Below, piece by piece: positions 1 to 22,047 of a stretch of 64,000 bases of DNA. The first letter of the stretch is position 1. Each line of letters opens with the position of its first letter. The stretch is from Phycisphaerae bacterium (GTDB taxonomy: Bacteria; Planctomycetota; Phycisphaerae; WQYP01), in NCBI GenBank assembly GCA_035545015.1, contig DASZZD010000060.1, positions 85 to 64,084 on the forward strand, read 5' to 3'. The position numbers and the translations under genes were made by a program. The notes beneath the pieces were generated by a model. That model was not told where the DNA came from and did not search any database. It saw nothing but the letters and a program-made list of their open reading frames with translations.

Positions 1-99
1 AAATCCCCCTGTCAAGTCCCAACTTGCAAAAATCCGTCCCCCATTTCCGCCGTTTCCTGCTACCATGCTGATTCCCACCCCCAACCCTCGAGGTGCCTC

Positions 100-630
100 A
101 TGTCCACCGCCCGCAGCAGCCTTACCGCCAAAGGCCTCTGGCTCATCGGCCTTGGCCTCCTCGCCAACGCCGGCGTCGGCCTCTACACCCACGCCACCAA
201 CCGCTCCCCAGACCTCTCCATCGACCAGAAAGCACTCGCCCAAGCCCTCGAATCCCCCAACCCCCAGGCCATGCTCGGCGCCCGCGGCATCTACATGATG
301 CCCGCCCAGATCGGCCCCTCCTCCTACGGCGCCTACCTCATGGACCTCGACTCCGGAACTCTCGTCGTCTATCAGGTCGGCCTCGACGCCAACAACCTCC
401 CCCGACGCCTCCACCTCCTCGCCGCTCGCAGCTTCCGCAACGATCGCTTCCTCGAAGACTGGAACACCGACACCCCCAACCCCACCGAAGTCCAGGCCCT
501 CGTCGCACAGCAACGCCAACGCAAAGCCCTCCAAAGCCAGACCGCTCAGCCCACCGTCGATCAATCCCCACCCCCCGGCGACCAAACTCCGCCGCCGCCT
601 CCCATCAACGCCCCCGATCTCCCCAAATAA
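100..630 (+). CDS. hypothetical membrane-anchored protein with Pro/Gln-rich C-terminus
   Basis: 176-aa ORF. One N-terminal hydrophobic helix (GLWLIGLGLLANAGVGLY) follows a short basic stretch. Uniform NNC codon usage matches local strand composition. No family recognised by eye. Confidence 0.55.
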   Translation: MSTARSSLTAKGLWLIGLGLLANAGVGLYTHATNRSPDLSIDQKALAQALESPNPQAMLGARGIYMMPAQIGPSSYGAYLMDLDSGTLVVYQVGLDANNLPRRLHLLAARSFRNDRFLEDWNTDTPNPTEVQALVAQQRQRKALQSQTAQPTVDQSPPPGDQTPPPPPINAPDLPK

Positions 631-720
631 CGCAAATTTCAACTGGCCAACTCGCCTCCGCCCGGGTACAACTAACAGAAGCCTCTTCTCCAAAACATCA
701 TCTCTCGAGGAGTTCGCGTC

Positions 721-1620
721 ATGGCAAAAATGTTCTACACAAGCGATGAAGCCGCCCAAAAGCTCGGCATGTCCCAGGATGGCCTTAAAGACCTCGTCAC
801 CCAGAACCGCCTCCGCGAATTCCGTGACGGCAACCGCGTCATGTTCAAAGTCGACCAGGTCGACAAAGTCGTCTCCGAACGACAGGCCGCTGAACAAAAG
901 AAAACCGGCGATACCGGCATGTCCGACTCCGGCATCGCACTCGCACCCTCCGATTCCGCCGCCGGCGACGCCATCTCCCTCTCCGATACCGCCCACCCCA
1001 CCGCCAAGGATGACACCGTCGCCGCCGCCCCCGGCCAGTCCGACTCCGGCGTCAAAGTCTTCGAGAGCGGCGAAATGAAAGCCGTCGACGCTTCCGCTCA
1101 AACCCAGATCCAGCCCCCCGCCTCCGACTCCAGCGACCAGCTCTCCCTCGAAGGCGTCGGCTCCGGCTCCGGCCTCCTCGACCTCACCCGCGAATCCGAC
1201 GACACCTCCCTGGGCGCCGAACTCCTCGACGAAATTTATCCCGGCGGCGACGCCAAGGGTGAATCCGGCATCGCTTCCGCCTCCGGTATCTTCGAACAGG
1301 CCGGCGCCGGCGACGTCGGCAGCTCCACGGGCCTCGAAAATGTCGCCTCCTCCGCCCCCGTCGCCGCCAGCCCCATGGTCGCAGAAGTCGAAGCCGCCGA
1401 TCCCTCCGCCGAAGCCTTCGGTGGGATGGCCTTCGCCTCCCTCCTCATCATGATCGTCGGCATCATCGTCGTCGGCTCCTTCTTCCGCGGCTACAGCCCC
1501 CAATGGGTCGAAACCGTCACCGCCAACACCACCAACCTCTTCATCTTCGCAGGCGCTCTCGTCCTCGTCTCCGCCATCCTCACCGGCATCGGCATGTTCA
1601 TCGGCAAGGCGTCCCGCTAA
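721..1620 (+). CDS. HTH (excisionase/MerR-like) DNA-binding domain protein with acidic linker and C-terminal TM helices
   Basis: 299-aa ORF. The N-terminus MFYTSDEAAQKLGMSQDGLKDLVTQNRLREFRDGNRVMFKVDQVD resembles excisionase-type HTH domains. A D/S/G/A-rich linker follows. Two C-terminal hydrophobic helices (FASLLIMIVGIIVVGSFF; LFIFAGALVLVSAILTGIGMFIG). Confidence 0.7.
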   Translation: MAKMFYTSDEAAQKLGMSQDGLKDLVTQNRLREFRDGNRVMFKVDQVDKVVSERQAAEQKKTGDTGMSDSGIALAPSDSAAGDAISLSDTAHPTAKDDTVAAAPGQSDSGVKVFESGEMKAVDASAQTQIQPPASDSSDQLSLEGVGSGSGLLDLTRESDDTSLGAELLDEIYPGGDAKGESGIASASGIFEQAGAGDVGSSTGLENVASSAPVAASPMVAEVEAADPSAEAFGGMAFASLLIMIVGIIVVGSFFRGYSPQWVETVTANTTNLFIFAGALVLVSAILTGIGMFIGKASR

Positions 1621-2915
1621 CCCGCGACGCCCTTCCCCCGCAGCGCACGCATCGCCTCGAGCAACTGCTCCACCTGCCCGTCGCTGTGCGTCGCCATCAA
1701 ACTCACCCGCAACCGCGCCGCCCCCGGCCCCACCGTCGGCGGCCGAATCGCCGGAACGTAAATCCCCCGCTCCCGTAAAAACGCCGCCGCCTCCAGCGCC
1801 TTCTCCGCCTCGCCCAAAATCACCGGCACGATCGGCGTCCGCGTATCCCCGCAGTCAAACCCCATCCCCCGCAGCTCCTCCCGCACCCGCTCCGCCAGCC
1901 CCAGCACCCGCTCCCGCCGCGCCGGCTCGCGCTCGACAATCCGCAGCGCCACCAGCGCCGCCCCCGCGCACGCCGGCGGCAACGCCGTCGTGTAAATAAA
2001 CGGCCGCCCCGCATTCACCAGCGTCTCAATCACCGCCCGCCGCCCCGCCACAAAACCCCCCAGCGACCCCAGCGCCTTCGACAACGTCCCCACCGTCACC
2101 GCCACCCGCTCCTCCACGCCCTGCGCCTCCGCCAGCCCCGCCCCGCGCGCCCCGAGCACCCCCGTCGCATGCGCTTCATCAATCACCACGAGCGCCGCAT
2201 GCCGCTCGGCCGCATCGCACGCCGCCGGCAAATCCGCGACATCGCCGTCCATGGAGAACACCGAATCGCTCACCAGAAATCGCCGCGACGCCGGAGCGCA
2301 GGCGTGAAAGCGCGCCAGCAATTCCGCGGCCCGGGAATAACGCCGATGCGGAAACGCGCGATGCGCCGCCCCCGAAAATTTCGCCGCGTCGAGCAAACTC
2401 GCATGGTTCAGTTTGTCGGAGACGATCGCATCATGTTCGCCCGCGAAAGTCGTGAGCACCGCGAGATTCGCCATGAACCCGGTGGGAAAGACCAGCGCCG
2501 CCTCGGCGTGCTTGAGGCGTGCGAGCGCGGATTCGAGTTCGTGATGAAGCTCGAGCGAGCCGGCGACGAGGCGCGACGCGCCGCTGCCTGCGCCCAGGCG
2601 TGCGGTGGCGTCGCGAGCGGCGTCGATGACTTCCGGATCGGTCGCAAGGCCGAGATAATTGTTGGTGCAGAACTGGACGAATTGACGCCCATCGATGGTG
2701 ACGGTCGGGCCGGTGGCCGAGGAGAGCGGCCGGAGTTCGCGCAACAAGTGCGCATCCCGGCGCCGCTGGAGCGATTCTTCAAGCGCGGCGAGCCACGCCG
2801 GGAAAGCGGCGCCGGCCGGCGGCGGGGGGGATGCGCTTTCGGGAACATTCATGGGAGCGGCGGAAAACTCGGGCAAAAAAACACCCCGGCACGCGCCGGG
2901 GCGGGTCTGTGTCAC
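1617..2915 (-). CDS. bioF: 8-amino-7-oxononanoate synthase (alpha-oxoamine synthase family, PLP-dependent)
   Basis: 432-aa ORF, collinear by eye with E. coli BioF. Motifs: NNYLGL, GSGASRLVAG, FPTGFMAN, SDKLNHASL, FSMDGD, DEAHATG, TLSKALG (PLP lysine), IRPPTV. GTG start at 2915; the internal ATG at 2852 is an alternative. 4-nt tail-to-tail overlap with 721..1620. Kbl or another family member cannot be excluded without a search. Confidence 0.85.
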   Translation of the reverse strand: MTQTRPGACRGVFLPEFSAAPMNVPESASPPPPAGAAFPAWLAALEESLQRRRDAHLLRELRPLSSATGPTVTIDGRQFVQFCTNNYLGLATDPEVIDAARDATARLGAGSGASRLVAGSLELHHELESALARLKHAEAALVFPTGFMANLAVLTTFAGEHDAIVSDKLNHASLLDAAKFSGAAHRAFPHRRYSRAAELLARFHACAPASRRFLVSDSVFSMDGDVADLPAACDAAERHAALVVIDEAHATGVLGARGAGLAEAQGVEERVAVTVGTLSKALGSLGGFVAGRRAVIETLVNAGRPFIYTTALPPACAGAALVALRIVEREPARRERVLGLAERVREELRGMGFDCGDTRTPIVPVILGEAEKALEAAAFLRERGIYVPAIRPPTVGPGAARLRVSLMATHSDGQVEQLLEAMRALRGKGVAG

Positions 2916-2939
2916 GCAAATGCAGCGGGGACAGGAAGT

Positions 2940-3284
2940 TCAGGCCTTGGCGCCAGCGGCTTCGGGCTGTCCGTCACGGGAGGCGGCCTGGGCGTTGGCG
3001 ATTTCCTGCATCTTCAGCTTCATGAGCCGGCCGACCTTGAACTTGACGGTCCGCTTGGAAGGCACCGGAACCCGCTCCATGGTCTTGGGATTCTGGGCGA
3101 TGCGGGCGGCGCGTTGCTTGCACTCGAAGACGCCGAAGTCCCGGAATTCCAAGCGGTTGCCGCGACCGAGTTCGCGAATCACCTCGTCGAGGAACTGCTG
3201 GGTCACGCGTTTGACGGTCACGCGCTTCACATCGAGTTGTTCCGCAATGCGATCCACCAGTTCCTTTTTGGTCACCGTTGCCAT
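2940..3284 (-). CDS. HU/IHF-family nucleoid-associated DNA-binding protein
   Basis: 114-aa ORF. KKELVDRIAEQ...RLEFRDFGVFECKQRAARIAQNPKTMERVPVPSKRTVKFKVG matches the HU/IHF fold with the beta-arm proline. Ala/Gln-rich tail. Confidence 0.85.
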   Translation of the reverse strand: MATVTKKELVDRIAEQLDVKRVTVKRVTQQFLDEVIRELGRGNRLEFRDFGVFECKQRAARIAQNPKTMERVPVPSKRTVKFKVGRLMKLKMQEIANAQAASRDGQPEAAGAKA

Positions 3285-3516
3285 GTTCTTCCTTTTCCTG
3301 CCCCCGGGGCAGGCAGAGAGATGCCTATTCGCACGAAGCGGGTCAGACTCTCAGTCCCACGAGCGTCCGTGACCCGTCCGATGTGCAATAGTCTCCGGGG
3401 ATGGAAGTATCATCCTCTTTCGCCGTGCGGTCGTCAAGATGTGACCGGACAATCGGTTCTGGCGGTGCTCCGCCGGGGGGAGGGGGGGCGGCCAAAAGGG
3501 GGCGGGCGGCGGCGGG

Positions 3517-3879
3517 TCAGGGGAATTGCACGCCCTGGCGGACGACCCAGCGGTAGCGGAAGCCGGTGCCATAGGGGCTGGAGATGTTCTGGGCGTCGTA
3601 GTCAAAGATGGTGAAAGCGGAGGTTTGATAGAGGGTTTCCGGGCCGTAAACGACCTTTTCGGGACGGGGGAAGAAGAGGTCTTCGTCGGCGTCGGCGAGC
3701 ACGGCGAAGGGGTTGATGGGGCGGGAGTCCGCGGTGCGGGCGAGGGCGGTGGCGGGTACGTAGAAGGGCGGCGCCGGCGGCGCGGCGGGGGCGTGTTGCG
3801 CGGCGGTTTGAGGACGCGACGGCTGAGCCGCACAACCGGCGACGGTCAGCAGCAGGGCGGGCAAAAAGAGGTAACGCAT
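3517..3879 (-). CDS. putative lipoprotein
   Basis: 120-aa ORF. Signal peptide MRYLFLPALLLTVAG|C with a lipobox cysteine. No family recognised. Confidence 0.6.
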   Translation of the reverse strand: MRYLFLPALLLTVAGCAAQPSRPQTAAQHAPAAPPAPPFYVPATALARTADSRPINPFAVLADADEDLFFPRPEKVVYGPETLYQTSAFTIFDYDAQNISSPYGTGFRYRWVVRQGVQFP

Positions 3880-4068
3880 GACACCAGTCTCCGCTGGAGC
3901 CAGCGCAAGGGTTGTGCCGGGAAATGTCCGAGAATCACGCGGGAATCAGCGTTGGAAAGGGCAGGATGTAGCGGCGTGCGGTGGAAAAGCCACACAGCAG
4001 CGAAACGCGTGGTGTCGTTGCATCACGCCGGGACAGGATGGCTGGGCGGCGCGGGAGGGCGGGGGGGG

Positions 4069-4800
4069 TCAGGCTTCGCTGGCGTGTTTGACGGGGCCGT
4101 CGATGGGGTCCTGTTTGGGAAGAAATTCCGCGTTGACGGCGCGTTCGGCGAGCTGATCGAGGATGGCCAGAAGGGGCTCGCGATCAAGTTCGTAATCGTC
4201 GAACTTCGCATGGCGTGTTTGTCCGGCGGCGTCGGTGTAGGTGATGTCGACGATGCCGGTGGATTTCCAGCGGGAGTTGTCGACGATGGTGATTTTCTCC
4301 CAGGGGATGGTGACGTCGGGGGCGGGGGAGACGGTGTCGGGCTGGGCGATGGCGCGGCGAGCCTGGCAGCGGAAGAACCACCAGATGGCGGCGATGACGG
4401 CGACGCCCAGGCCGGCGACGATGGCTTTCTGGGTGGCGATATCGCTGGCGCTGCGCCAGCCATCGACTTTGGCGATGGAGGCGATGTCGGTCATTTTGGC
4501 GCGGGCCTCGGAAGTTTCGTGGGCCCAGCCTTTCCAGGAGTCGAGGTCGGATTGATAAACGGAGACGAGGTTGTTGGTGGGGCCCATGTTTTTCATGACT
4601 TCGACGAGGCGGTCATCGTCCTGGGGATAGCGTACGAAGGCGTCGTAGGTGAACCAGCAGAAGAACGCGAGGCACATGAGGATGATGAGGATGTTTTTGT
4701 TGCGGACGGTATTCGACGCGCGGGCGACCAGCGGGAAGGAGGGCGGGGCGGGAACGGCGGAGATCGGCGAGGCGGCGGGAGGGGGCGGTTGATCGGACAT
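4069..4800 (-). CDS. hypothetical membrane protein
   Basis: 243-aa ORF. Pro-rich N-terminus and two hydrophobic helices (ILIILMCLAFFCWFTYDAF; IVAGLGVAVIAAIWWFF). Coding-like composition. Confidence 0.6.
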   Translation of the reverse strand: MSDQPPPPAASPISAVPAPPSFPLVARASNTVRNKNILIILMCLAFFCWFTYDAFVRYPQDDDRLVEVMKNMGPTNNLVSVYQSDLDSWKGWAHETSEARAKMTDIASIAKVDGWRSASDIATQKAIVAGLGVAVIAAIWWFFRCQARRAIAQPDTVSPAPDVTIPWEKITIVDNSRWKSTGIVDITYTDAAGQTRHAKFDDYELDREPLLAILDQLAERAVNAEFLPKQDPIDGPVKHASEA

Positions 4801-4898
4801 GCGGAGTGCTCCGTGAGAGGGCGAGGAAGAAGAAAGATCGGCGTGATGGGGGAGGGCTCTTTCGGGAAAACCCGGGGGCGCGGGGGTTTATTGCGGGA

Positions 4899-5108
4899 TC
4901 ATTCGGGGAATTGGGCGTTGTTGAAGACGAGGCCCCAGAAGATGTTTTTGACACGTTCGGAGAACTGGCCCCTGCCGACCTGATGGATGGGGATCCACTC
5001 AACGCGTTCAGGATTGCGGAGGCCCCACTCGATGAAGCGGGAGGTGTCGTCGAGCATCTGCTGGCGCCACTGCTCGTGGTTGATGTAAACGGGTCGACGG
5101 CGTGCCAT
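4899..5108 (-). CDS. small hypothetical protein (69 aa)
   Basis: Only the C-terminal part of ORF-track 4899..5513 looks protein-like (MARRRPVYINHEQWRQQMLDDTSRFIEWGLRNPERVEWIPIHQV...). ATG at 5106-5108. The upstream part of the long ORF is low-complexity. Confidence 0.4.
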   Translation of the reverse strand: MARRRPVYINHEQWRQQMLDDTSRFIEWGLRNPERVEWIPIHQVGRGQFSERVKNIFWGLVFNNAQFPE

Positions 5109-5325
5109 GAAATCCCCAGGAACGTTGGGGAGATTATAGGCGGCGGGCGGGCATCGGGGGAATGGCGATGGGGAGTGAAAATGGATGGGAAAGAGTTCGC
5201 GGTGATGAACCGCGGACGCCGCGGGTTCGCGGGGGGGGAGAGCGTTGCGTTCCACGAGGGGATATGTCGCGGATATGATGGAGGGTGGGAGTGTTGGGGC
5301 GCCGGGTGCCGCGCGAGAGGTTTGT

Positions 5326-5877
5326 ATGGAATCGCCGTTGGTTGGCAAGGTGTTGGTGGCGTCGCCGCAGTTGCTGGATCCGAATTTTGCGAGGTCGGTG
5401 GTGTTGGTGGTGCAGCATGATGCGAAGGGGGCGATGGGGCTGGTATTGAATCGGCCGCTGGAGACGAGCGTGGGGGAGGCGTGGTCGCAGGTATCGGCGG
5501 TGCCGTATGACAATGGGGACCCGCTGTTTCAGGGCGGTCCGGTGGAGGGGCCGCTGATGGTGATCCATCATGATGCGGCGCGTGGGCAGATCGAGGTATT
5601 GCCGGAGGTGTATTTGTCGTCGGATGCGGATGCGGTGCGGGGGCTGGTGGCGGACGCGACGGAGCCGATGAAATTTTTCGTGGGGTACTCGGGGTGGACG
5701 GCGATGCAGTTGGAGTCGGAGCTGGCGGAGGGGGCGTGGCACGTGGCGCTGATCGAGGCGGAGCATGTGCTGGCGACGCCGCCGGCGTTGTGGGAGCAGT
5801 TGGTGCGGCATGCGCGCAAGGCGGTGGGGCCGGCGGTGGATCCGAAGCTGATCCCGCCGGATCCGTCGGTGAACTAG
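5326..5877 (+). CDS. YqgE/AlgH family protein (UPF0301)
   Basis: VLVASPQLLDPNFARSVVLVVQHDAKGAMGLVLNRP ... FFVGYSGWTAMQLESEL is the YqgE/AlgH pattern. Start set at ATG 5326 (MESPLVGK) with GAGAGG upstream. The ORF-track start at 5245 is probably too long. Confidence 0.8.
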   Translation: MESPLVGKVLVASPQLLDPNFARSVVLVVQHDAKGAMGLVLNRPLETSVGEAWSQVSAVPYDNGDPLFQGGPVEGPLMVIHHDAARGQIEVLPEVYLSSDADAVRGLVADATEPMKFFVGYSGWTAMQLESELAEGAWHVALIEAEHVLATPPALWEQLVRHARKAVGPAVDPKLIPPDPSVN

Positions 5878-5964
5878 CGACGACGTAAATGGCCACGAAA
5901 AACACGAAAGGCACGAAAGACGACGGGAATTGTCCACAAATGGACCCTAATGCGCACGAATGGG
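5878..5964 (+). repeat. composite CACGAA-hexamer repeat element, copy 1 (orientation A), starts 1 nt after the yqgE stop
   Basis: CGACGACGTAAATGGCCACGAAAAACACGAAAGGCACGAAAGACGACGGGAATTGTCCACAAATGGACCCTAATGCGCACGAATGGG. Same architecture as the copies at 6086, 11888, 12075, 35230, 35337, 36583, 58243, 59878 and 62738. Confidence 0.85.
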
Positions 5965-6085
5965 TCGGGGCTGGGCGGGGGCGTGTGTCGCCGATAGGTG
6001 AGGATTCAGAAGTCAGCAGTCAGTCGACGAAGTTTTCAACTTGATCTTGAAACGATCCTGGGTGGATCACGCTGCGCGTGTCTGT

Positions 6086-6175
6086 TATTTGTGTTGATTT
6101 GTGTGCATTTGTGGATAGTTCTGTCGCGATTTCGTGATTTTCGTGCTTTTCGTGATTTTCGTGGTCAATTTATCG
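6086..6175 (-). repeat. composite repeat element, copy 2 (inverted partner of copy 1)
   Basis: TATTTGTGTTGATTTGTGTGCATTTGTGGATAGTTCTGTCGCGATTTCGTGATTTTCGTGCTTTTCGTGATTTTCGTGGTCAATTTATCG. It is the reverse complement of the architecture at 5878-5964, with ~120 nt between the two copies. Confidence 0.85.
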
Positions 6176-6203
6176 TAAGCGGGGAGTTTCTTGGGCGGGG
6201 GGG

Positions 6204-7253
6204 ATGGGGTATCTTGGGGGGATGGCTGAGATTTCTGCTGAGGAATTGCTGGCGGGGGCGCGGGAGGTGGTGCGGTCGGAGGCGGCATCGATTGCGGCGG
6301 TGGCCGAGACGCTGACGGAGGCGGCGGCGCGGGCGATTGTGCTGATTCATGAGCGGACGCGCGGGGACGGCGGGGGAGGGGCGCATGGAGGGGGGACGGT
6401 GGTGTTGTCGGGGATTGGCAAGTCGGGGTTGGTGGGGCAGCGGATTTCGGCGTCGTTTGCGTCGACGGGGACGCCTTCGCATTTTCTGCATCCGGTGGAA
6501 GCGCTGCATGGGGATCTGGGGCGCGTGCGGCGGAATGATGTGGCGCTGCTGCTCTCTTACAGCGGGGAGACGGATGAAGTGGTGCGGCTGCTGGATCATT
6601 TGAAGCGGCAGGAAATTCCGGTGGTGGCGATCACGTCGTCGGGGCAATCGACGCTGGGGCGGGTGGCGGATATTGCGATCACGATCGGGCGGATCGAGGA
6701 AGTGTGCCCGCATGGGCTGGCGCCGACGACGACGGTGAATTGCATCTCTGCGGTGGGCGATGCGCTGGTGCTGGGGGTGATGAGCCTGAGGAAATTTTCG
6801 CGGGAGGAGTTCGCGGCGTTTCATCCGGGGGGCTCGCTGGGGCGGAAGTTGCTGCGGGTGGAGCAGGTGATGGAGTTTCGGGTGGGGGAGAATTTTGCGG
6901 CGGTGGGGGAGGGCGTGACGCTGCGCGAGGTGCTGGAGCGCGATCCGGTGAGCGGGCGTCGCGCGGGGGCGGTGGTGGTGGTGGATGGGTCGGGGAAGCT
7001 GAGCGGGGTGTTCACGGATGGGGACTTGCGGAGGCACCTGCGGAATCGGCCGGCGGCGGAGTTGTTGGAGACGCCGATCGGGGTGGTGATGACGCGTTCG
7101 CCGAAGCGGATCGGGAAGGAGTCGCTGGCGTCGGAGGCGCTGGGGCTGCTGAACCGGTATCGGATTGATGAGTTGCCCGTGGTGGACGGGGAAGGGCGGC
7201 CGGTGGGGCTGGTGGATGTGCAGGATCTGGTGCGGGTGAGGGTGGTGGAGTGA
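6204..7253 (+). CDS. kdsD: arabinose-5-phosphate isomerase (SIS + tandem CBS domains), KdsD/KpsF family
   Basis: 349-aa ORF. SIS motifs VLSGIGKSGLVGQRISASFASTGTPSHFLHP, LLLSYSGETDE, AITSS, then two CBS-like repeats. An alternative ATG lies at 6222. Confidence 0.9.
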   Translation: MGYLGGMAEISAEELLAGAREVVRSEAASIAAVAETLTEAAARAIVLIHERTRGDGGGGAHGGGTVVLSGIGKSGLVGQRISASFASTGTPSHFLHPVEALHGDLGRVRRNDVALLLSYSGETDEVVRLLDHLKRQEIPVVAITSSGQSTLGRVADIAITIGRIEEVCPHGLAPTTTVNCISAVGDALVLGVMSLRKFSREEFAAFHPGGSLGRKLLRVEQVMEFRVGENFAAVGEGVTLREVLERDPVSGRRAGAVVVVDGSGKLSGVFTDGDLRRHLRNRPAAELLETPIGVVMTRSPKRIGKESLASEALGLLNRYRIDELPVVDGEGRPVGLVDVQDLVRVRVVE

Positions 7254-7298
7254 GATATTTGAATTGTGTAGGCCGGCGGCGGGTGATAGTGCGGGGAT

Positions 7299-7546
7299 AT
7301 GGTGGACAGCAAACTTATTGACAAGATTGTCGCGTTATCTCGTGCCGATCGCGAGGAGCTTCTGGGGAGCTTCTGGACATCGTTTTGGCAAGTTTGGAAA
7401 AAGACGTGGCCCCAAATCTGACGCCCGAGGAGCAGGCCGAACTCTCGCGGAGCCTTGAGGCATTCCGCCAAAATCCTGAAACGTTTATGACTTGGGAGCA
7501 GGTAAAGGAACTATTTGCGCAGCAACGAGCGAGGCGATCGGCGTGA
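7299..7546 (+). pseudogene. frameshifted addiction-module antitoxin (ParD/RelB-partner type, TIGR02574-like)
   Basis: ATG 7299 gives MVDSKLIDKIVALSRADREELLG..., then stops at 7419. The next frame continues LDIVLASLEKDVAPNLTPEEQAELSRSLEAFRQNPETFMTWEQVKELFAQQRARRSA* (stop 7544-7546). The frames join at the GGGG run at 7364-7367. Neither piece is in the ORF track as a sensible protein. Confidence 0.5.
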
Positions 7547-7702
7547 ATGGGACTGATCCGCTTCGCAGTAGATGAAACATTTCATGTGGTCTGGGCTGTA
7601 CGGCTACGGGGACACGCCTGCTATATACACGCGATTGGTGACGGGGCGAAGGGCAATCGGGTGACCTCAGACTTTGTGGAGCAGCGGTTCTTCTACTTTT
7701 GA
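7547..7702 (+). pseudogene. truncated RelE/ParE-like toxin remnant (51 codons)
   Basis: An ATG immediately follows the antitoxin stop (TGAATG). It encodes MGLIRFAVDETFHVVWAVRLRGHACYIHAIGDGAKGNRVTSDFVEQRFFYF. This is too short for a toxin; position and size suggest a decayed partner. Weak call. Confidence 0.3.
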
Positions 7703-7784
7703 CCACTCGGCAAGTTGCTTTCCTTTTCCGGTCGCCTGCGACACAATCCGGTTCTGATCTTTCCCCCCTTGCTGTGGAGTTGTC

Positions 7785-8291
7785 ATGGCCCTCGCCAATA
7801 TTCAACTGCTCATTCTCGATGTCGATGGCGTGCTCACGGATGGGGGGATTATTCGGGATGACAACGGGCAGCAGATCAAGCGATTTCATGTGCGGGATGG
7901 GGCGGGGATCGTGTTGTGGCGGCGGCTGGGGAAGGATGTGGCGATCATCACGGGGAAGGAGTCGGACGTGGTGAGCCACCGGGCGGAGGAGCTGGGGATT
8001 CGGCATGTGTATCAGAACGTGGGGAACAAACTGGAGGCGTATGACCAGGTGAAGGATGAACTGGGGGTGTCGGATTCGCAGGTGGCGTATGTGGGGGATG
8101 ATCTGCCGGATTTGCCGGTGATGCGGAAGGTGGGGGCGGCGATCGCGGTGGCGGATGCGGTGGAGGAGGTGCGGGCGGTCGCGAAATATGTGACGAAGTT
8201 TCCGGGGGGATATGGGGCGGTGCGGGATGCGATCGAGTATTTGTGCAAGGAGATGGGGTTGTGGGAGCAGGTGTTGGAGCGGTATCGGTGA
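7785..8291 (+). CDS. kdsC: 3-deoxy-D-manno-octulosonate 8-phosphate phosphatase (HAD family)
   Basis: 168-aa ORF. LLILDVDGVLTDGGI, ITGKES, YVGDDLPDLPVM and GGYGAVRDAIEYL match KdsC. Confidence 0.9.
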   Translation: MALANIQLLILDVDGVLTDGGIIRDDNGQQIKRFHVRDGAGIVLWRRLGKDVAIITGKESDVVSHRAEELGIRHVYQNVGNKLEAYDQVKDELGVSDSQVAYVGDDLPDLPVMRKVGAAIAVADAVEEVRAVAKYVTKFPGGYGAVRDAIEYLCKEMGLWEQVLERYR

Positions 8292-8298
8292 GGGGGCG

Positions 8299-8361
8299 GT
8301 CAGTGGTCAGTGGTCAGTGGTCAGAAGGCAGTAGTCAGTAGTCAGTAGTCAGAAGTCAGAA
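8299..8361. repeat. tandem heptamer array (GTCAGTG x3, GTCAGAAG, GCAGTA, GTCAGTA x2, GTCAGAA x2)
   Basis: Read directly from the sequence. TAG occurs at 8332, 8339 and 8346, covering all three + frames. Every unit gives TGA on the - strand at 7-nt spacing. Confidence 0.9.
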
Positions 8362-8518
8362 GGGTTGGGGGGCGGGGATTTTGCTGGGGGGCCAACGGAT
8401 GGGGGTGGGGGTTGTCTAGTGGGGGGCGTGAGTGGGCACAAACACGGGCGGACATTGCGGATGATGGATCGCGTGCGGCTTGTTGCGCCGGGCCGCGGCG
8501 GGGTACACTTTCCGATCT

Positions 8519-11500
8519 ATGCTGAAACGAGTTGCACTTTTTGTCATCGGCCTGATGGTCGCGGTGGGCGCGCTGCTGTTGTATGAGTACTTCAGCGGTG
8601 CGAGCATCAATGGGAACCGGGTGGAGTCTGACGCGGGGCCGACGGCGGCGCCGCGGGGGGACCAGCCGTTCGAGTACGAAGGTCGCCGGCCGGAGAACGC
8701 GGACCTCGAGTACGTGTTGACGGCCAAGAAATTCAAGCAGGCGACGAAGGAGGATGGGACGCCGATTCCGGGGGAGTTCCTGCTGACCGAGCCGTCGGCG
8801 CGTTATTACACGACGGACGGGCGGCTGGTGACGATCCGCAGCGACAGCGGCGTGGTGTTCGTGGACACGGTGGCAAGCGGGCCGGGGGGAACCCGGACGA
8901 AATTCATGCCGCGGGGCGGAAGGTTGTCGGGGCACGTGCTGCTGACGTTTGGGCCGCAGGATGCGGATACGAATCCGGCGTCGGCGGCGAGCACGATCAA
9001 GGTGAAGCTGTCGAAGGATTTGGAATTCGACAACGTGGCGCGGACGCTGCACAGCGCGGGCGACATCAATGTGCGGTCGAACCAGGTGGCGTTCGACGGG
9101 TCGGATGTGACCATTGCGTTCAACCCGGACCAGAAGCGGCTGGAGTTTTTCCGGATCAACCAGGGCAACAAGATCATTCTGCATGATGTGGATCCCCAGA
9201 CGCTGGCGCTCAGCGATATGACGGCGCCCGGGGCGGGGGGGAAGGGGAACGCCGCCACGGCACGGACGACTGCTCCGGCGGCGGCGGCGGTGACGACAGC
9301 GCCGGCGACGGCGCCGGGTCAGGCAGTGGCATCGGCGACGCAGCCGGCGTCGGGGGGCAAGGCTTCCAGCGTGCCGACGACGTACAAGCTGGCGTTCGGT
9401 CAGAACGTGGAGGCGACGGTGGGGCAAGGGAAGCTGAGCAGCGAGCAGTTGTTCGTGTTGTTCATGGCGGCGCCGGCGGATGTGGAAAAGGCCAAACCGC
9501 AGGCGGTGACGGAACCGGGAACGGCCGGAGGGGCGGCGAGCGGGGCGGGCAACGCGACAGGCGGCGGTGGCGCGACGGCCGGCGCGGCGACGCAGGATGC
9601 GGCACTGACCGGAACCACGCTGCCGGCGGCGACCGAGCCGCTGCCCAAGGCGAATTCGACGGATCTGGTGATCACCTGGACGGGGCCGATGGAAATGCGG
9701 CCGACGGGTCCGGAAGACATGAAGCTGGCGGGACCTAAGGATAAAGCGCTGGAGGCGGTGGGGACGGCGGAGCATCCGGTGGTGGTTCAGGATGGGACGA
9801 TCACGGTGACCGGCGGGCGGCTGTGGGTGCATGCGGCGGAGCGGCGGCTGGAGATCGAGCCGGGGGATGTGGGGCAGGTGCGGATGGCGGATGCGACGCG
9901 GGGCAGCGGGACGTGCCAGGGGATTTCGTTCGATCGGGCGGCGAATCATCTGCGGCTGGCGGGGCCGGGGGTTGTGGATGTGCCGCAGACGTTGCTGCGG
10001 AAGTCGGCGACGGCGACGGGCCGGCCACTGGAAATCTCGTGGAAAACGGCGCTGGACCTGGACCTGATCGACATTCCGGATCCGAAAAAGCCGGGCAAGA
10101 AGAGCACGGAGCCGGCGGTGCGGCGGGCGATTCTGACGGGCCTGGCGAAGATCGACGATCCGACGTTCCAGCTTGCGGGCGACACGATCGACGCGCTGAT
10201 CGCCAACACGGCGGACCCGATCAATCCGCAGACGCTCGAGCATCTGCTGGCGACGGGGAACGTGACGGTGAAATCGTCGCGCGGGGCGGGCAGGGGGGCG
10301 AAGAATGTGCAGGCGGCGGCGGAGCCGGATGGGATCAGCGGGCAGCGGCTGGAGCTGCTGACGGCGGTGCCGGACGACGGCCGGAGCAAAGCGCCCGTGC
10401 CAACGCGGCTGCTGGTGGATGGCGATGTGACGGCGTGGAGCTATCGCACGGAGAAAGAAACGAAGGATGCGGGCGAAACGGCGTCGAGCAAGCAGAAGGA
10501 GCGGGGCAAGGAGACGATTTACGGGCAGCACCTGGACATCGCGCTGGCGTCGAAGCCGAAGAACAGCGGTGCGGCGGGGGGCGGCGGGGAGGAGATGGCC
10601 GGCGGCGTGGGGCTGGGCGATTACCAGGCGGTGGCGTTTACGGCGGACGGCGGGAACACGGACCGCGGGGTGAAAATCGAGCTGGAGAATTATGCGGCGC
10701 ACGTGATCACGGCGACGGCGCATGTGCTGCACGCGACGCCGCTGGATAATCGGGCGACGCTGGAGGGCGTGAGCGGGAATCCGGCGCGGGTGTCGTTTGC
10801 GGAGGATGCGATCTCCGGCGACAGGATTTTGCTGGACCAGAACAAGAAGACATTTGAGATTCCGGGCGCGGGGGAGTTTTTGTTCACGCTGCCGGCGAGC
10901 AAGGCGCGCAAGGAAGCGGCGCCGATGCGCGTGACGTGGACGGACCGGATGGTGTTCGACAGCGATGCGCTGCTGGCGACGTTCGATGGCCACACGGTGT
11001 CGCGGATGCTGTCGGTGAAGACTGCCGATACGAGCCAGCTTACGGCCGATCATCTGCGGGTGCGGTTGAAGCATGTAAAGCCGGTGGATGCGGCGGCGAC
11101 CGCCCCGGGCGATTCGGAGCTGGCGAATCTCGCGGGGTCGTCGGACCTGACGCTCGACACGATCGACGCCGAGGGAAGAGTGGTTGCGACGGGCAGCCAG
11201 ACGGGGCCGGGCGGCGTGCTGCTGACGCAGATGCTGCTGATGACCGAGAAGCTGACGTATGCGGATGAGACGCACCAGCTCACGATTCCCGTGCCCGGCA
11301 GGATGGTGCTGATCGACAATCGGCCGGAGAAGGAGAAGACCGGCGGCGCGGGGGCGACGGGCGGGGTAACCGGCGGCAGCGCTCGGGGTCAGACGGCGTT
11401 CGAGTGGGCGGGAAAACTGGTGTACAACCAGCAGGACAACACTGTGGAGCTCACGAAGGATGTGTGGATGGTGCATGTCCCGGCGAAGGCGATCCGGGTG

Positions 11501-11887
11501 AGCGGGGCCGCGGCGACGTCGAGGGTCGACCTGCGGACGCAGCATCTGGTGGCGAAGCTGTCGGCGGCCAGGGATGTGGGGGAAACGACCGATCTGGCGA
11601 GCCCGGTGGGGGTGGGCGCGGGTGGGAACCAGCGGCTGGAAAGCGTGCGTGCGGATGGCGGAGCGACGCTGACGCTGGACAACAAACAGGAATGCCGGGC
11701 GGATGCGCTGACGTATGACGACAACACGCACCTGGCGACAGCGACCAGCGCGACGCGGGAAGGCGGAACGTACATTGATCCGGAGAAGCAACAGTTGCTA
11801 CATTTCTCGTCGCTGCAATGGAATATGCACGACAACGCGGTGACGACGAGCAATCTGGGGGGGAATATCCAACTCTCGCCGCCGTGA
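8519..11887 (+). CDS. giant membrane-anchored LptC/LptA (OstA-like) repeat protein, putative
   Basis: 1122 aa from ATG 8519 (TTG 8480 is possible). N-terminal anchor VALFVIGLMVAVGALLLY. It occupies the lptC-lptA slot after kdsD and kdsC. It holds many OstA-like beta-strand repeats (NQVAFDGSDVTIAFNPDQKRLEFF, AISGDRILLDQNKKTFEIPG, EKLTYADETHQLTIPVPGRMVLID, AGKLVYNQQDNTVELTKDVWMVH, ADALTYDDNTHLATA). The coding call is firm; the family call is by eye. Confidence 0.7.
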   Translation: MLKRVALFVIGLMVAVGALLLYEYFSGASINGNRVESDAGPTAAPRGDQPFEYEGRRPENADLEYVLTAKKFKQATKEDGTPIPGEFLLTEPSARYYTTDGRLVTIRSDSGVVFVDTVASGPGGTRTKFMPRGGRLSGHVLLTFGPQDADTNPASAASTIKVKLSKDLEFDNVARTLHSAGDINVRSNQVAFDGSDVTIAFNPDQKRLEFFRINQGNKIILHDVDPQTLALSDMTAPGAGGKGNAATARTTAPAAAAVTTAPATAPGQAVASATQPASGGKASSVPTTYKLAFGQNVEATVGQGKLSSEQLFVLFMAAPADVEKAKPQAVTEPGTAGGAASGAGNATGGGGATAGAATQDAALTGTTLPAATEPLPKANSTDLVITWTGPMEMRPTGPEDMKLAGPKDKALEAVGTAEHPVVVQDGTITVTGGRLWVHAAERRLEIEPGDVGQVRMADATRGSGTCQGISFDRAANHLRLAGPGVVDVPQTLLRKSATATGRPLEISWKTALDLDLIDIPDPKKPGKKSTEPAVRRAILTGLAKIDDPTFQLAGDTIDALIANTADPINPQTLEHLLATGNVTVKSSRGAGRGAKNVQAAAEPDGISGQRLELLTAVPDDGRSKAPVPTRLLVDGDVTAWSYRTEKETKDAGETASSKQKERGKETIYGQHLDIALASKPKNSGAAGGGGEEMAGGVGLGDYQAVAFTADGGNTDRGVKIELENYAAHVITATAHVLHATPLDNRATLEGVSGNPARVSFAEDAISGDRILLDQNKKTFEIPGAGEFLFTLPASKARKEAAPMRVTWTDRMVFDSDALLATFDGHTVSRMLSVKTADTSQLTADHLRVRLKHVKPVDAAATAPGDSELANLAGSSDLTLDTIDAEGRVVATGSQTGPGGVLLTQMLLMTEKLTYADETHQLTIPVPGRMVLIDNRPEKEKTGGAGATGGVTGGSARGQTAFEWAGKLVYNQQDNTVELTKDVWMVHVPAKAIRVSGAAATSRVDLRTQHLVAKLSAARDVGETTDLASPVGVGAGGNQRLESVRADGGATLTLDNKQECRADALTYDDNTHLATATSATREGGTYIDPEKQQLLHFSSLQWNMHDNAVTTSNLGGNIQLSPP

Positions 11888-11970
11888 CGGTAAATTGGCC
11901 ACGAAACGCACGAAAAACACGAAGAACGGGGGGGGACGGTCCACAAATGTTCACAAATTGGCACGAATGC
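11888..11970 (+). repeat. composite repeat element, copy 3 (orientation A), starts 1 nt after the stop of 8519..11887
   Basis: CGGTAAATTGGCCACGAAACGCACGAAAAACACGAAGAACGGGGGGGGACGGTCCACAAATGTTCACAAATTGGCACGAATGC. Confidence 0.85.
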
Positions 11971-12074
11971 GGCTGAGTGGCTCGGGGGGACTTGAGGCGC
12001 AAGGCGCTATTTTATTTAGGGTTACGGTGGGATCCTTGGTGACGGCGCGGGGGGTTGTTCCGTTTCTAATCTAC

Positions 12075-12115
12075 CTATTTGTGAAAATTTGTGTTTATTT
12101 GTGGACAATTTATCC
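12075..12115 (-). repeat. composite repeat element, copy 4 (inverted, half-length: CACAAA half only)
   Basis: CTATTTGTGAAAATTTGTGTTTATTTGTGGACAATTTATCC. It contains the exact reverse complement of TTGTCCACA at 12100-12108 and lacks the TTTCGTG triplet. Confidence 0.75.
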
Positions 12116-12245
12116 CCCGTGATTCACGTTTCGGATTATTTGCGGATTGCCAACTATCTTGACGCGATATTGTCGGAGCATGTAGGTGAGGCCGATTGCC
12201 CCGGTTCAGCCCGGCGGATTTCACCGATGTTCGTGGAGTTGAGCC

Positions 12246-12653
12246 ATGTTGACGATGTTTGGAAGCCTGGTGGGTAAAGCGAAAGTTCTTGGTTTGGCGG
12301 GAGTTGCGACGGGTGCGCTGGCGTTGGCGCCCCAGGCGGCAAGTGCCCATGACCGGTTCAGTTTCGGCATCACGATCGCCGCCCCGGCGCGTGTGTACGC
12401 GGCTCCGGTGGTGGTGGCTCCCGCCCCGGTGTACGCACCGGCCCCGGTGGTGGTGACGACGCCCGCTTACGTGCCGGCACCGGTCTACACGCCCGCCCCG
12501 GTGGTGGTGGCGGCTCCGGCTTGCCCGGCACCGGTGGTGGTTGCCGCCCCGGTGTATGCGGCGCCAGTGGTGGTGGAGACCCCTCGCTACTATCGCCCCC
12601 GGCCGGTGTTCGTCGGCGGCTGGCATCATGATTTCGGATGGCATCATCGGTAA
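12246..12653 (+). CDS. secreted PXPV/APVV-repeat protein
   Basis: 135-aa ORF. Signal peptide ending AASA|HD, then ~12 repeats of (A)P(A)PV(Y/V)(V) and a C-terminal RPRPVFVGGWHHDFGWHHR tail. A terminator follows. Confidence 0.65.
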   Translation: MLTMFGSLVGKAKVLGLAGVATGALALAPQAASAHDRFSFGITIAAPARVYAAPVVVAPAPVYAPAPVVVTTPAYVPAPVYTPAPVVVAAPACPAPVVVAAPVYAAPVVVETPRYYRPRPVFVGGWHHDFGWHHR

Positions 12654-12713
12654 GGCTCTGGAGGCGGCAGGACCGGCAGGGGGGGATGGGGGGGGCCAAG
12701 CTTCTACCTAATG

Positions 12714-12757
12714 GCGCGGCGGCGCGGTGGAGACCCACCGGCCGCCGCGATTTTTTT
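12714..12757 (+). terminator. Rho-independent terminator
   Basis: GC-rich hairpin GCGCGGCGGCGCGGTGG-AGA-CCCACCGGCCGCCGCG followed by TTTTTTT (12751-12757), ~60 nt after the stop of 12246..12653. Confidence 0.6.
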
Positions 12758-12848
12758 GCGCGCCCGCGCGCGAACGGGGCGGAGAGGCGGGACGTAGAGG
12801 CGGAGAGGGAGCCGCATGGTAATAGACGTCGTCGTCAGGCCGCGCGGG

Positions 12849-13436
12849 TCACGGGGTTGGTGCGGCTTCGGAGGCGGGAACCGGGGATGTTGGGGCGGCC
12901 CAGGGGTTGTAGTGATCATCCTCGTGGGGGAGAGAGGCGTTGAGGGGAATTTCGTGAAGGGCGAAGAGGCGGATGCCGGAGAGATTGTCGGCGCGCCATT
13001 GCCATTCGAAGCGGAGGAAGCGACGGGCGGTGGCGGTGGGGCGGACCTCCATGTAGTCGCCGGATTCGGGACCGCCGGGCGTGGGCGGCACGCGGATGGT
13101 GCGTTCGGGGATGATCGTGAAGAGGCTCATGAAGAAGGTGAGGGGGGAGTCGATGTGTTGGTAAAGTTGATTGTCGATCTCCAGCCACACGTGCATGGGG
13201 GTTTCGGACGCGAGCAGGTTGAGGGGAAAGCGAAGGGGTGGCGGTGGTGGACTGGTGTCGTTGGGATCTCGGTCGGGAGGCGCATCGGGGCGGAAGCCAA
13301 AGAGCAGGGCGGTCGCCTTCGCACTGAGGGCGACTTCCAATGTTGTGATCAGGAGACGAGCGCCGAGGTCGTCGAAGTTGATATCGGCGGCACGCTTCCG
13401 AGGGGGAGGAATCGAACGTTTGCGGAGTCGAAACAT
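12849..13436 (-). CDS. hypothetical protein
   Basis: 195-aa ORF with non-repetitive, protein-like sequence (e.g. MHVWLEIDNQLYQHIDSPLTFFMSLFTIIPERTIRV, FLRFEWQWRADNLSGIRLFALHEIP). It lies 58 nt downstream of 13495..14106 on the same strand. Confidence 0.55.
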   Translation of the reverse strand: MFRLRKRSIPPPRKRAADINFDDLGARLLITTLEVALSAKATALLFGFRPDAPPDRDPNDTSPPPPPLRFPLNLLASETPMHVWLEIDNQLYQHIDSPLTFFMSLFTIIPERTIRVPPTPGGPESGDYMEVRPTATARRFLRFEWQWRADNLSGIRLFALHEIPLNASLPHEDDHYNPWAAPTSPVPASEAAPTP

Positions 13437-13494
13437 GGTTCTCCGTTGGGAGATGTATCTTTATTGTAACACGATGGAGAACCGCTCCGCGGAA

Positions 13495-14106
13495 TTAGCT
13501 CCGATCGATCATCGCGGCGTGACTTCCAGCAGGATGATCGCTGCTCGCTCGGTTGGTGGGAGCGACATATTGTTGCTGATCGTTAAAATCCCGCCGGACA
13601 GCGCGACGGGAGGAAAAAAGAAGTACGGGGACGATGCTGTAGACCGCCAGACCGATGAGCCAATCCAAGGTGCGGGCGTGGTCATCCCAGCGAAACTCGT
13701 GGATGGCCCAGAAAAAATAGAGCGGGATGAAGAGGAGGCTGGAACGTGCTCCCAGTCGCGTGAGGCGAAGGGCGAAGGGGAGTGCGCCGGCATCGCTTTT
13801 CCAGAGGGCAATGGCCGTTCGAGCAGCGCTGCCTCCCCAGATGATCAGCGAGAGGCCGATCAGACCGAACGGGATGGCGTAGAAAAGGTGGAATCGCTCC
13901 ATTTCGTGAATTCCTACTACGAACGAAATCACGGTTCCCACCAAAAACAATGACCCCCAGAAAAGCGCGAGGCAGGCCCAAAAGAGGAGAATGAGAAAGC
14001 TGTTGCGGCAGCGGGTTCGCTCTGGGACGTGGTACGACAGCGGAGCCGGTGTCACTGGTGGATCGATGGCGGGTGGAGGGGACGGTCCTGTTGGTTGATT
14101 GCTCAT
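13495..14106 (-). CDS. hypothetical polytopic membrane protein
   Basis: Start set at ATG 14104-14106 (MSNQPTGPS...); the upstream part of ORF-track 13495..14742 is antisense junk. About 4 hydrophobic helices. The start overlaps the P450 stop in ATGA (14103-14106). Confidence 0.6.
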   Translation of the reverse strand: MSNQPTGPSPPPAIDPPVTPAPLSYHVPERTRCRNSFLILLFWACLALFWGSLFLVGTVISFVVGIHEMERFHLFYAIPFGLIGLSLIIWGGSAARTAIALWKSDAGALPFALRLTRLGARSSLLFIPLYFFWAIHEFRWDDHARTLDWLIGLAVYSIVPVLLFSSRRAVRRDFNDQQQYVAPTNRASSDHPAGSHAAMIDRS

Positions 14107-15503: not shown

Positions 15504-15514
15504 GGTGGATCCGA

Positions 15515-15901
15515 TCACCAGAGCGATGAGACGGGGTACACACGAATGGCGGCGTCGGGGGTGAGGATGGTGGCGTTGGCGTCGAGCGCCTGGCAAATGA
15601 GGAGACGGTCGAAAGGGTCGCGATGAACGGGAGGCAGGGAGGGGAGGTGGAGGACAGCGGACTCGGCGAGCGGCCACGGAACGAACGCGCGAGAGGCGCG
15701 GGCACGGGCGAGCACATCCTGGATGGGCTCCGTAACTTTGAGCTTGCCGATAGTGTGTTTAACGAGCAGTTCCCAGACGACGACCGGACTGAGCAGCAAC
15801 TCGTTTACGGGATCGTCAAATACCTGGAGAGCAGTCGTGGAAAGCTTTTGGGATTCCAGCGCCAGCCACCAGAAGGCCGCGGTGTCGACAAGAACCTTCA
15901 C
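15515..15901 (-). CDS. vapC: PIN-domain toxin, VapC family
   Basis: VKVLVDTAAFWWLALESQKL...SPVVVWELLVKHTIGKL...HRDPFDRLLICQALDANATILTPD is the PIN (COG3744-like) pattern. The GTG start overlaps the antitoxin stop (GTGA at 15898-15901). Confidence 0.8.
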   Translation of the reverse strand: MKVLVDTAAFWWLALESQKLSTTALQVFDDPVNELLLSPVVVWELLVKHTIGKLKVTEPIQDVLARARASRAFVPWPLAESAVLHLPSLPPVHRDPFDRLLICQALDANATILTPDAAIRVYPVSSLW

Positions 15902-16113
15902 TCGTTTTCGCCCTCGAAGAGGCGAAGGACTTCTTCGGGCAACGGATCGAAGAAGACGCTGTCCGGCACGTCGGGGATGAGCCCCTTGGCCCATCCTGGG
16001 CGGCGCATTTCGACGGGGGCGGTGAGCTGCGCGCGGTAGGTTTGGATGGCGGCTTCGAGGGCGTCTACGAAGGGCTTGGGGAGGTCGCTGACATCAAGAA
16101 GTTGTTGTGACAT
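15898..16113 (-). CDS. antitoxin partner of VapC (71 aa)
   Basis: ATG 16111-16113 (MSQQLLDVSDLPKPFVDALEAAIQTYRAQL...). Small acidic protein translationally coupled to the PIN gene. Confidence 0.7.
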   Translation of the reverse strand: MSQQLLDVSDLPKPFVDALEAAIQTYRAQLTAPVEMRRPGWAKGLIPDVPDSVFFDPLPEEVLRLFEGENE

Positions 16114-16221
16114 GCGGGCATTATAGCACAAGCCGAAGGGGGGAAAGGAGAGCGAGCCGGGAGGGACATTGGCAGTTTTAGATGGACGCAATTACATACT
16201 AAAGCATGAATTCCGGACGTG

Positions 16222-17193: not shown

Positions 17194-17221
17194 GCGGGCT
17201 CCGGAGTGCGGCGGTGGGGGA

Positions 17222-17227
17222 ATTATA
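17222..17227 (-). promoter_or_regulatory. candidate -10 box (perfect TATAAT) for phoH
   Basis: The + strand ATTATA at 17222-17227 reads TATAAT on the - strand, ~29 nt upstream of the phoH ATG. This hexamer is rare in so GC-rich a sequence. No convincing -35. Confidence 0.35.
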
Positions 17228-17307
17228 GGCATAGGGTAGCTTTGGGAAATGAATCGCAGGCTTGCTATGATGTCACGCGGAGCGGATCACACGGCAGGGA
17301 GCAGTGA

Positions 17308-17502: not shown

Positions 17503-17515
17503 TTGAACGGAAATC

Positions 17516-17887: not shown

Positions 17888-17906
17888 TCGAACCCGTTGA
17901 CGTTCC

Positions 17907-19100: not shown

Positions 19101-19124
19101 GGACCGGCGTGAGGGACCGTTACG

Positions 19125-22031: not shown

Positions 22032-22047
22032 ACGTTTGACATGGACG

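Follow-up and report, generated by a model that had tools for sequence, protein, structure and literature searches.

The biotin-synthesis gene bioF, which encodes 8-amino-7-oxononanoate synthase, spans an abrupt reversal of strand composition in an uncultured soil planctomycete of the class Phycisphaerae (GenBank assembly GCA_035545015.1). The window analyzed here is the whole 64,000-nucleotide (nt) stretch of contig DASZZD010000060.1 from position 85 to 64,084, with a G+C content of 63%. In it, bioF lies on the - strand between a gene for a 299-amino-acid (aa) helix-turn-helix (HTH) protein and the gene for HU, and the + strand changes from C-rich to G-rich within the bioF coding sequence. 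The features around this switch are as follows, where GC3 skew denotes the GC skew of third codon positions on the + strand.

1 to 2238: left arm, + strand C-rich, GC3 skew -0.65 to -0.81; 176-aa gene, 299-aa HTH gene, and 3' half of bioF
100 to 630, + strand: 176-aa gene, in the left arm
721 to 1620, + strand: 299-aa gene, N-terminal excisionase-type HTH, in the left arm
1617 to 2852, - strand: bioF, 411 aa, intact (PF00155, TIGR00858)
2205 to 2534: polarity switch zone, with the change point at 2238 and third positions mixed until ~2534
2535 to 3600: zone of weak or intermediate + skew; 5' part of bioF, HU gene, and an intergenic stretch
2940 to 3284, - strand: HU gene
3285 to 3516: intergenic stretch of 232 nt
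3601 to 21000: + block, with the + strand G/T-rich regardless of gene orientation; the 120-aa, 243-aa, P450, PhoH, GT2, and SpoVG genes lie on the - strand and the AlgH, KdsD, HAD, and 1135-aa genes on the + strand

In 1-kb windows, plain GC skew on the + strand was -0.39 and -0.31 over positions 1 to 2000, -0.04 over 2001 to 3000, +0.12 to +0.51 from 3 to 21 kb, about 0 from 22 to 31 kb, and -0.08 to -0.54 from 31 to 64 kb. With 200-nt windows, the change resolved into a rise from -0.49 (2001 to 2200) through 0.00 (2301 to 2500) to +0.17 (2501 to 2700). Third codon positions were far more strongly skewed than the sequence as a whole. GC3 skew was about -0.75 up to ~2200, lay between -0.65 and -0.81 over positions 1 to 2400, and peaked at +0.5 to +0.8 between 3.9 and 17 kb, with dips at short open reading frames (ORFs) and intergenic stretches. 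The + skew is weak at the 5' end of bioF and at HU and reaches full strength only from ~3.6 to 4 kb. At fourfold-degenerate (4-fold) sites, the favored base accounts for up to 83 to 88% of positions, and one run of 150 codons in the right part of the window (45106 to 45633) has 0 G and 115 C at third positions.

Base composition depends on the DNA strand and not on the gene. Within the + block, coding-strand GC3 skew is +0.64 to +0.79 in genes on the + strand (AlgH, KdsD, and HAD) and -0.54 to -0.75 in genes on the - strand (P450, PhoH, GT2, and SpoVG). An excess of T over A accompanies the excess of G over C in the window, which is the usual leading-strand signature. The original prediction, made from the letters of the window, had placed a sign change of the origin type at 2.2 to 2.6 kb and had described an unusually strong bias that tracks the strand and not the gene. 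Computed GC3 skew recovers the change at the same coordinates, with the origin-type sign and an amplitude of about 0.75 to 0.9, and the opposite values of + and - strand genes bear out the rest. The leading/lagging mutational asymmetry of this Phycisphaerae lineage is extreme.

An intact gene with two compositional regimes

BioF scored 440.2 bits against TIGR00858 (curated equivalog cutoff, 426.45) and aligned to profile positions 3 to 360 of 361 in PF00155 (E = 1.6e-59), which corresponds to a full-length pyridoxal phosphate-dependent class I/II aminotransferase fold. The same 411-aa gene call is made in independent assemblies. The identities of its 5' and 3' halves to five relatives were 0.83/0.89, 0.64/0.67, 0.69/0.73, 0.70/0.71, and 0.65/0.64, respectively. 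No second BioF-like gene was found within the window by tblastn, and no inverted repeat in the window joins the two edges of the + block. Judged from its sequence, BioF is a single collinear orthologue and not a chimera, and both profile matches and the equal halves agree with the earlier description of an intact, collinear protein.

The maximum-likelihood change point within bioF is at 2238 (2-lnL support, 2205 to 2388; gain, 43 lnL units), with a + strand third-position G/(G+C) of 0.115 to its left and 0.57 to its right. Along the coding strand, codons ~206 to 411 are rich in G at the third position, codons 92 to 205 are mixed, and codons 47 to 91 are strongly C-rich; the first 205 codons taken together range from mixed to C-rich. 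The boundary therefore lies nearer codon 150 to 206 than after the first ~110 codons, where it had been put by eye.

The junction is supported by independent data. The 299-aa gene adjoins bioF on four independent contigs (an NCBI metagenome-assembled genome [MAG], two JGI metagenomes, and one Logan run). Three aligned contigs from different samples are collinear with window positions 1 to 5781, 28 to 3318, and 111 to 3050 at 99.95, 99.3, and 99.5% identity, respectively, and the three junction-spanning contigs carry different single-nucleotide polymorphisms. A sister species, described below, shows the same structure in two assemblies. The flip is real and independent of assembly, and it falls at the same codon in the sister species.

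Conservation in a sister species and variation in the wider clade

The sister species is represented by MAG GCA_035548175.1 (Phycisphaerae, SMAG_U6078), with a 139-kb bioF contig and loci labeled L084 and L088. Its BioF is 85% identical to that of the window, and the order of genes common to the bioF contig is HAD, KdsD, AlgH, 243-aa, 120-aa, HU, bioF, HTH gene, and 176-aa, followed by PALP, rhodanese, and others. Strong skew extends at least 10 kb to each side of the flip, and left-arm polarity runs at least 10 kb further left than can be followed in the window (~11 kb seen). A weak zone covers HU and the 5' part of bioF here as well; in the weak zone of the two species, the coding-strand G fraction (fG) at 4-fold sites is 0.32/0.23 for HU and 0.23/0.23 for the 120-aa gene. 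The best change point occupies the same bioF alignment column (codon ~206) in both species, with support spanning codons 188 to 209 in L084 and 156 to 217 in the window.

At the left edge of the window, the 64,877-bp source contig stops within ~110 nt of position 1, as do contigs from three independent short-read assemblies, and the sister species continues to the left of this point with PALP, rhodanese, and other genes. This pattern suggests a repeat or strain-variable region directly left of the window. Scans made for extension of the left arm retrieved only matches of ≤66% identity from metagenomes (query, isochorismatase gene from the sister contig) and only the sister species from genomes (query, 423-aa protein).

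The two species are well diverged, since 4-fold-site identity between them in the unskewed gltX and uvrD genes is only 0.53 to 0.57, compared with 0.40 by chance. Strongly skewed genes show a 4-fold identity of 0.85 to 0.92, far above that of the zero-skew gltX and uvrD; such a difference would be expected if synonymous turnover is slowed by extreme bias. The sign of gltX skew itself differs between the species (coding-strand fG of 0.39 versus 0.67).

Equilibrium was assessed by fitting a reversible (GTR) substitution model to 4-fold sites of the flanks, compared between the window and the sister species. Flank sites (n = 1103) had a C frequency of 0.83 and an identity of 0.861; block sites (n = 491) had a G frequency of 0.878 and an identity of 0.868. 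For a relic, defined as a block exposed to flank-type pressure from the time the species separated, the model predicts an fG of 0.75 and an identity of 0.68. For a block at equilibrium, it predicts 0.91 and 0.86, and the values observed over the 491 sites were 0.93 and 0.87. Both sides of the flip are at compositional equilibrium in the two species. Because the block shows equilibrium and not relic values, an unameliorated inversion or import older than the species split is rejected, and because block and flanks are equally diverged between the species, introgression is not indicated. Outgroup parsimony polarized changes at 17:2 in the left arm and 33:5 in the block; with ≥90% of sites in one state, parsimony returns "away from the common base" on both sides. 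Polymorphisms among four near-identical assemblies were too few and were partly clustered in the manner of recombination tracts.

To the right of the + block, a second change of polarity leads into a long C-rich arm.

21000 to 31000: broad terminus-type transition, skew from +0.45 through 0 to -0.5
22048 to 23949, - strand: gltX, in the transition zone
25609 to 26652, - strand: trmB-like gene, in the transition zone
26424 to 27881, - strand: WD40 gene, lineage-specific, skew +0.5, in the transition zone
27959 to 30691, + strand: uvrD, in the transition zone
31000 to 64000: right arm, + strand C-rich, GC3 skew mostly -0.4 to -0.9

In the sister species, UvrD (88% identical) is encoded on the bioF contig within the same series, SpoVG-GltX-...-UvrD-AsnB-RNaseD-M42-GltD-GltB. 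Polarity there passes from + through ~0 in uvrD to between -0.3 and -0.64, and the - polarity continues to the end of the contig and on a further contig. The distance from the origin-type to the terminus-type change is 19 to 29 kb in the window and about 25 to 37 kb in the sister species. Both species retain the terminus-type zone. In the right arm of the window, 81% of the genes (21/26) lie on the G-rich (-) strand, and RNaseD, M42, and GltD show an fG of 0.87 to 0.91 and an identity of 0.85 to 0.88 between species.

The stretch between trmB and uvrD is nonhomologous between the two species, with the WD40 gene in the window (26263 to 28085) and four other genes in the sister species (L088, 4590 to 10010); both inserts are + skewed within an otherwise unskewed zone. 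In the window, asnB (31376 to 33339, - strand) carries an apparent frameshift, with the Asn_synthase profile matched at positions 2 to 191 in ORF 31420 to 33339 and at 210 to 352 in ORF 31376 to 32101. The asnB gene of the sister species is intact (645 aa), and the window copy is either a pseudogene or the product of an assembly indel. A small ParE-like toxin and DUF2281 pair (45624 to 46174, - strand), likely a toxin-antitoxin module, sits between M20 peptidase and dihydroorotate-dehydrogenase-like genes. A circular 65-kb replicon was considered and rejected, as the rightmost genes of the window do not match the genes that the sister species carries to the left of its 176-aa gene.

Extreme skew is present in several Phycisphaerae lineages, whose loci are cited here by L numbers. 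Counting switches within ~2 kb of the HTH-bioF-HU locus, we found an origin-type switch at HU in L096, where a terminus-type switch follows only 5 kb to the left; one at the 3' end of the HTH gene in L098, with 10-kb arms on both sides; and a weak one near the locus in L097. In L086, the skew is zero for 6 kb from the 3' end of bioF onward, with + skew setting in ~7 kb downstream of the gene. The L093 genome has an origin-type switch elsewhere, at the conserved RNaseD-M42 junction (L173, 1116 to 2177; JBEHXY010000248.1), on both sides of which the window has - polarity. The flip at bioF is lineage-specific and not clade-wide.

L093 and L096 share gene order and have opposite polarity, and such pairs of genomes imply that differences in polarity do not simply reflect inverted DNA. 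In this chromosomal neighborhood, switches of the origin and terminus types tend to form close pairs (5 to 35 kb). A prediction that genes of the uvrD/asnB end flank the small island in L096 failed. The HU-bioF-1135-aa zone of L087 has a skew of -0.07 to -0.33 in a context of -0.8 and is recognizably relaxing, unlike the block of the window. Among more distant relatives, breaks in synteny are concentrated at the bioF 3' end; breakpoint clustering is typical of replication pivots. The 1135-aa ORF (8480 to 11887, + strand) forms the far end of a segment that is inverted in some relatives. It has no Pfam or NCBIfam match and is conserved: the sister species has a 1120-aa gene in the corresponding position, and the L087 counterpart is 33% identical across 1177 aa.

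Probable fork divergence and competing explanations

In bacteria, the leading strand carries more G than C independent of gene orientation, and we know of no cause other than replication direction for an orientation-blind strand bias over tens of kilobases. On this basis, forks would diverge at ~2.2 to 2.5 kb and converge at ~21 to 31 kb. We consider it probable that the bioF flip is an origin-type switch that marks a maintained point of fork divergence. Forks would then move leftward to the left of ~2.2 to 2.5 kb and rightward to its right, with bioF straddling a functional initiation site or zone. The two halves of the gene would have drifted toward opposite synonymous compositions, with the encoded protein remaining orthologous and intact. 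The short rightward arm would fade in the 10-kb gltX-uvrD zone, 19 to 29 kb away, beyond which forks would again run leftward.

Such an arrangement may represent one origin with a very short arm, and hence near-unidirectional replication, or a secondary initiation site. If one origin per replicon is assumed, an origin with a very short right arm is the logical reading. In the near-unidirectional variant, the rightward fork would end 20 to 30 kb away in gltX-uvrD and the leftward fork would copy the rest; several initiation sites, on the other hand, would explain the close origin-type and terminus-type pairs found at different places in related genomes. Either way, we propose only tentatively that a core-gene replicon is copied almost unidirectionally from a bioF-overlapping zone that has no recognizable DnaA-box origin or that it has more than one initiation site.

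A number of observations weigh against fork divergence at bioF. No DnaA box (TTATCCACA, ≤1 mismatch) was found in 2200 to 3600, although this consensus may not be that of Planctomycetota, and matches to TTATCCACA in the whole window occur at chance (8 versus 4.6 expected). A tblastn search with a DnaA probe found no dnaA in the window or in the examined loci of close relatives. No 40-nt stretch between 1 and 6000 reaches 65% A+T, and the switch lies within coding sequence. The terminus-type transition is only 19 to 29 kb away, which is not the case at a normal chromosomal origin. Nine or 10 of the ~14 genes in the + block are on the presumed lagging strand. No switch is present in L093 and L211, whose local gene order is the same, and the segment from the HTH gene to the 1135-aa gene is inverted in L095 and in L210+L087 with uniform polarity. 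The strand distribution of the block genes can also be read in another manner: most of them share the strand of the flank majority, as expected if replication direction changed over fixed DNA and not if the DNA was inverted, which is a weak pointer toward the former. Of the original proposal of an origin, the part that stands is a maintained point of fork divergence; the canonical oriC features (a DnaA-box cluster, dnaA, and an AT-rich element) are lacking.

Further searches for replication features were likewise negative. DnaA-box clusters are absent at the switches of relatives, and no DnaA box, AT-rich element, or dif-like motif was found at either switch of the window; dif prediction has also failed for Planctomycetes (PMC3025954). 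Scans for tRNA genes and Rfam families gave no matches. Pfam and NCBIfam scans of the tested ORFs, including all large ones, gave no match to Rep or partition (ParA/ParB) proteins; the sole Par-named match was the ParE-like toxin domain (45624 to 45887).

The window does contain AT-rich intergenic arrays of a CACAAAT unit with a 10-nt phase (6078 to 6125, 11942 to 11952, 12051 to 12126, and 62751 to 62761), which recur in the sister species (L084, ~20026; L088, ~16446) and in L171 (3090 to 3147). Their last unit resembles a DnaA box (TTGTCCACA or CTATCCACA), and the arrays are dispersed, with none at a skew switch. They are probably a promoter or operator motif.

The 299-aa HTH protein encoded beside bioF is conserved across Phycisphaerae (79 genome loci). 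It combines the N-terminal excisionase-type HTH with ~160 disordered residues that contain an invariant GSGSGLLDLTRE..ELL.EIYPG motif and with C-terminal hydrophobic helices. Its structure model is poor (predicted local distance difference test [pLDDT], 57.5). The protein is probably membrane anchored without a Rep-like fold, and we found no evidence tying it to initiation or fork arrest.

Among the alternatives, the one that fares best holds that the block at 2.3 to 21 kb, or else the left arm, is a relic of inversion or recombinational import that keeps its old skew, with fork direction unchanged at bioF. Its attraction lies in the true inversion of the HTH gene-1135-aa gene segment in L095 and in L210+L087, in the synteny breaks at the 3' end of bioF, in the small opposite-polarity islands at this locus in L096 and L211, and in the location of most block genes on the same strand as the flank genes. 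However, an intact single-copy gene cannot contain the end of an inversion, the window has neither a paralogue nor an inverted repeat, and the halves of BioF are equally orthologous. Gene order on both sides, the boundary codon, and full-strength skew to the left and right are all shared by the sister species. Moreover, the relaxation predicted by the model (fG, 0.75; identity, 0.68) contrasts with the observed 0.93 and 0.87, and block and flanks have diverged equally, with no sign of introgression. We therefore regard a relic as unlikely. The end of an inverted segment had been one of the initial readings of the flip, and the shared gene order, shared change point, and equilibrium on both sides speak against it.

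It is slightly more doubtful that a domain-wide, nonreplicative strand bias, in which one strand is exposed over tens of kilobases, has its boundary at bioF. Such a bias would be compatible with the lack of origin features and with polarity blocks of 5 to 35 kb that differ among related genomes of the same gene order. Only replication, however, is known to give orientation-blind bias over at least 20 kb, and the window shows the usual leading-strand signature of G over C with T over A. The 81% of genes in the long right arm that lie on the G-rich strand also argue against this explanation.

An ordinary DnaA-dependent oriC of a bidirectionally replicated chromosome, with the switch at 21 to 31 kb produced by a later rearrangement of the 31- to 64-kb arm, is very unlikely. 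The sign change is of the origin type and is conserved, as this explanation requires. In addition, one distant Planctomycetota MAG (L071, 6566 to 11119; JBBIVY010000014.1) carries dnaA, a beta-ketoacyl synthase gene, and bioF side by side. This dnaA is the only one found among the 3.25 Mb of loci examined, and its position hints that bioF can be origin proximal in Planctomycetota. Yet the surroundings of the switch in the window lack a DnaA-box cluster, dnaA/dnaN, and an AT-rich element, and the + polarity right of bioF is not a whole replichore long (as seen in the 64-kb window and the sister contigs). The 31- to 64-kb arm is syntenic and equilibrated at full skew in both species and is thus not a recent rearrangement. 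The conserved second transition, which the original prediction did not weigh, makes an ordinary two-armed origin unlikely.

Finally, an assembly chimera within a conserved gene and recombination of inverted alpha-oxoamine synthase paralogues, both raised at the outset, can be dismissed on the available sequence data: the junction does lie inside a conserved gene family, a classic site for a misjoin, but independent contigs span it collinearly, two assemblies of the sister species show the same structure, the second alpha-oxoamine synthase gene that had been suggested as a check was not found by tblastn within the window, no inverted repeat was found there, and both halves of BioF are equally like their relatives.

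Relation to known systems and significance

The flip resembles a Lobry-type GC skew change at a bacterial origin in that the + strand goes from C-rich to G-rich irrespective of gene orientation, with T over A accompanying G over C, and in that the change is abrupt with rearrangement breakpoints clustered around it. It differs in its extreme amplitude (GC3 skew of about 0.75 to 0.9), in its location within a coding gene, in the lack of a nearby DnaA-box cluster, dnaA/dnaN, or AT-rich unwinding element, and in the terminus-type change that follows after 19 to 29 kb. Recent inversions and horizontal acquisition of DNA leave skew islands that likewise present an opposite-skew block between two sign changes, and inversions of neighboring segments do occur among relatives. 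In contrast to such islands, one boundary here falls in an intact orthologous gene, gene order in the sister species is identical, and neither relaxation nor excess divergence is seen.

The closest described case is that of the unidirectional Pseudoalteromonas chromids, in which ter2 is near ori2 (PMC7858055), such that origin-type and terminus-type polarity changes stand close together. The same study predicted 77 unidirectional replicons from GC skew among 16,103 large replicons, with no Planctomycetota listed (PMC7858055). Unlike the chromids, the stretch studied here yielded neither iterons nor a Rep or Par gene of plasmid type, and it carries core genes (gltX, uvrD, gltBD, kdsD, and HU); the likeness is drawn from the 64-kb window and sister contigs, which show the outer polarity over 33 kb to the right and, in the sister species, about 11 kb to the left. 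Literature searches found no account of the skew of this clade.

The flip is of more interest than an artifact: the inversion-end and chimera readings are refuted, and the origin reading survives with noncanonical features. A switch of strand skew is a standard computational marker of bacterial origins and termini, and here it is exceptionally strong and lies inside an intact gene. Equilibrium in two species is what separates a real change of replication direction from flipped DNA. In genomes such as these, binning, gene calling, and chimera detection based on codon usage or skew can mistake real polarity switches for misassemblies.

To our knowledge, near-unidirectional replication has so far been seen only in plasmid-derived chromids. 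If the short right arm is genuine, this bacterium would have a core-gene replicon that replicates almost unidirectionally, or it would initiate replication at several sites. The clade also offers a natural system for measuring the rate at which codon usage and protein composition adjust once the direction of replication has changed, with bioF holding both regimes within a single gene.

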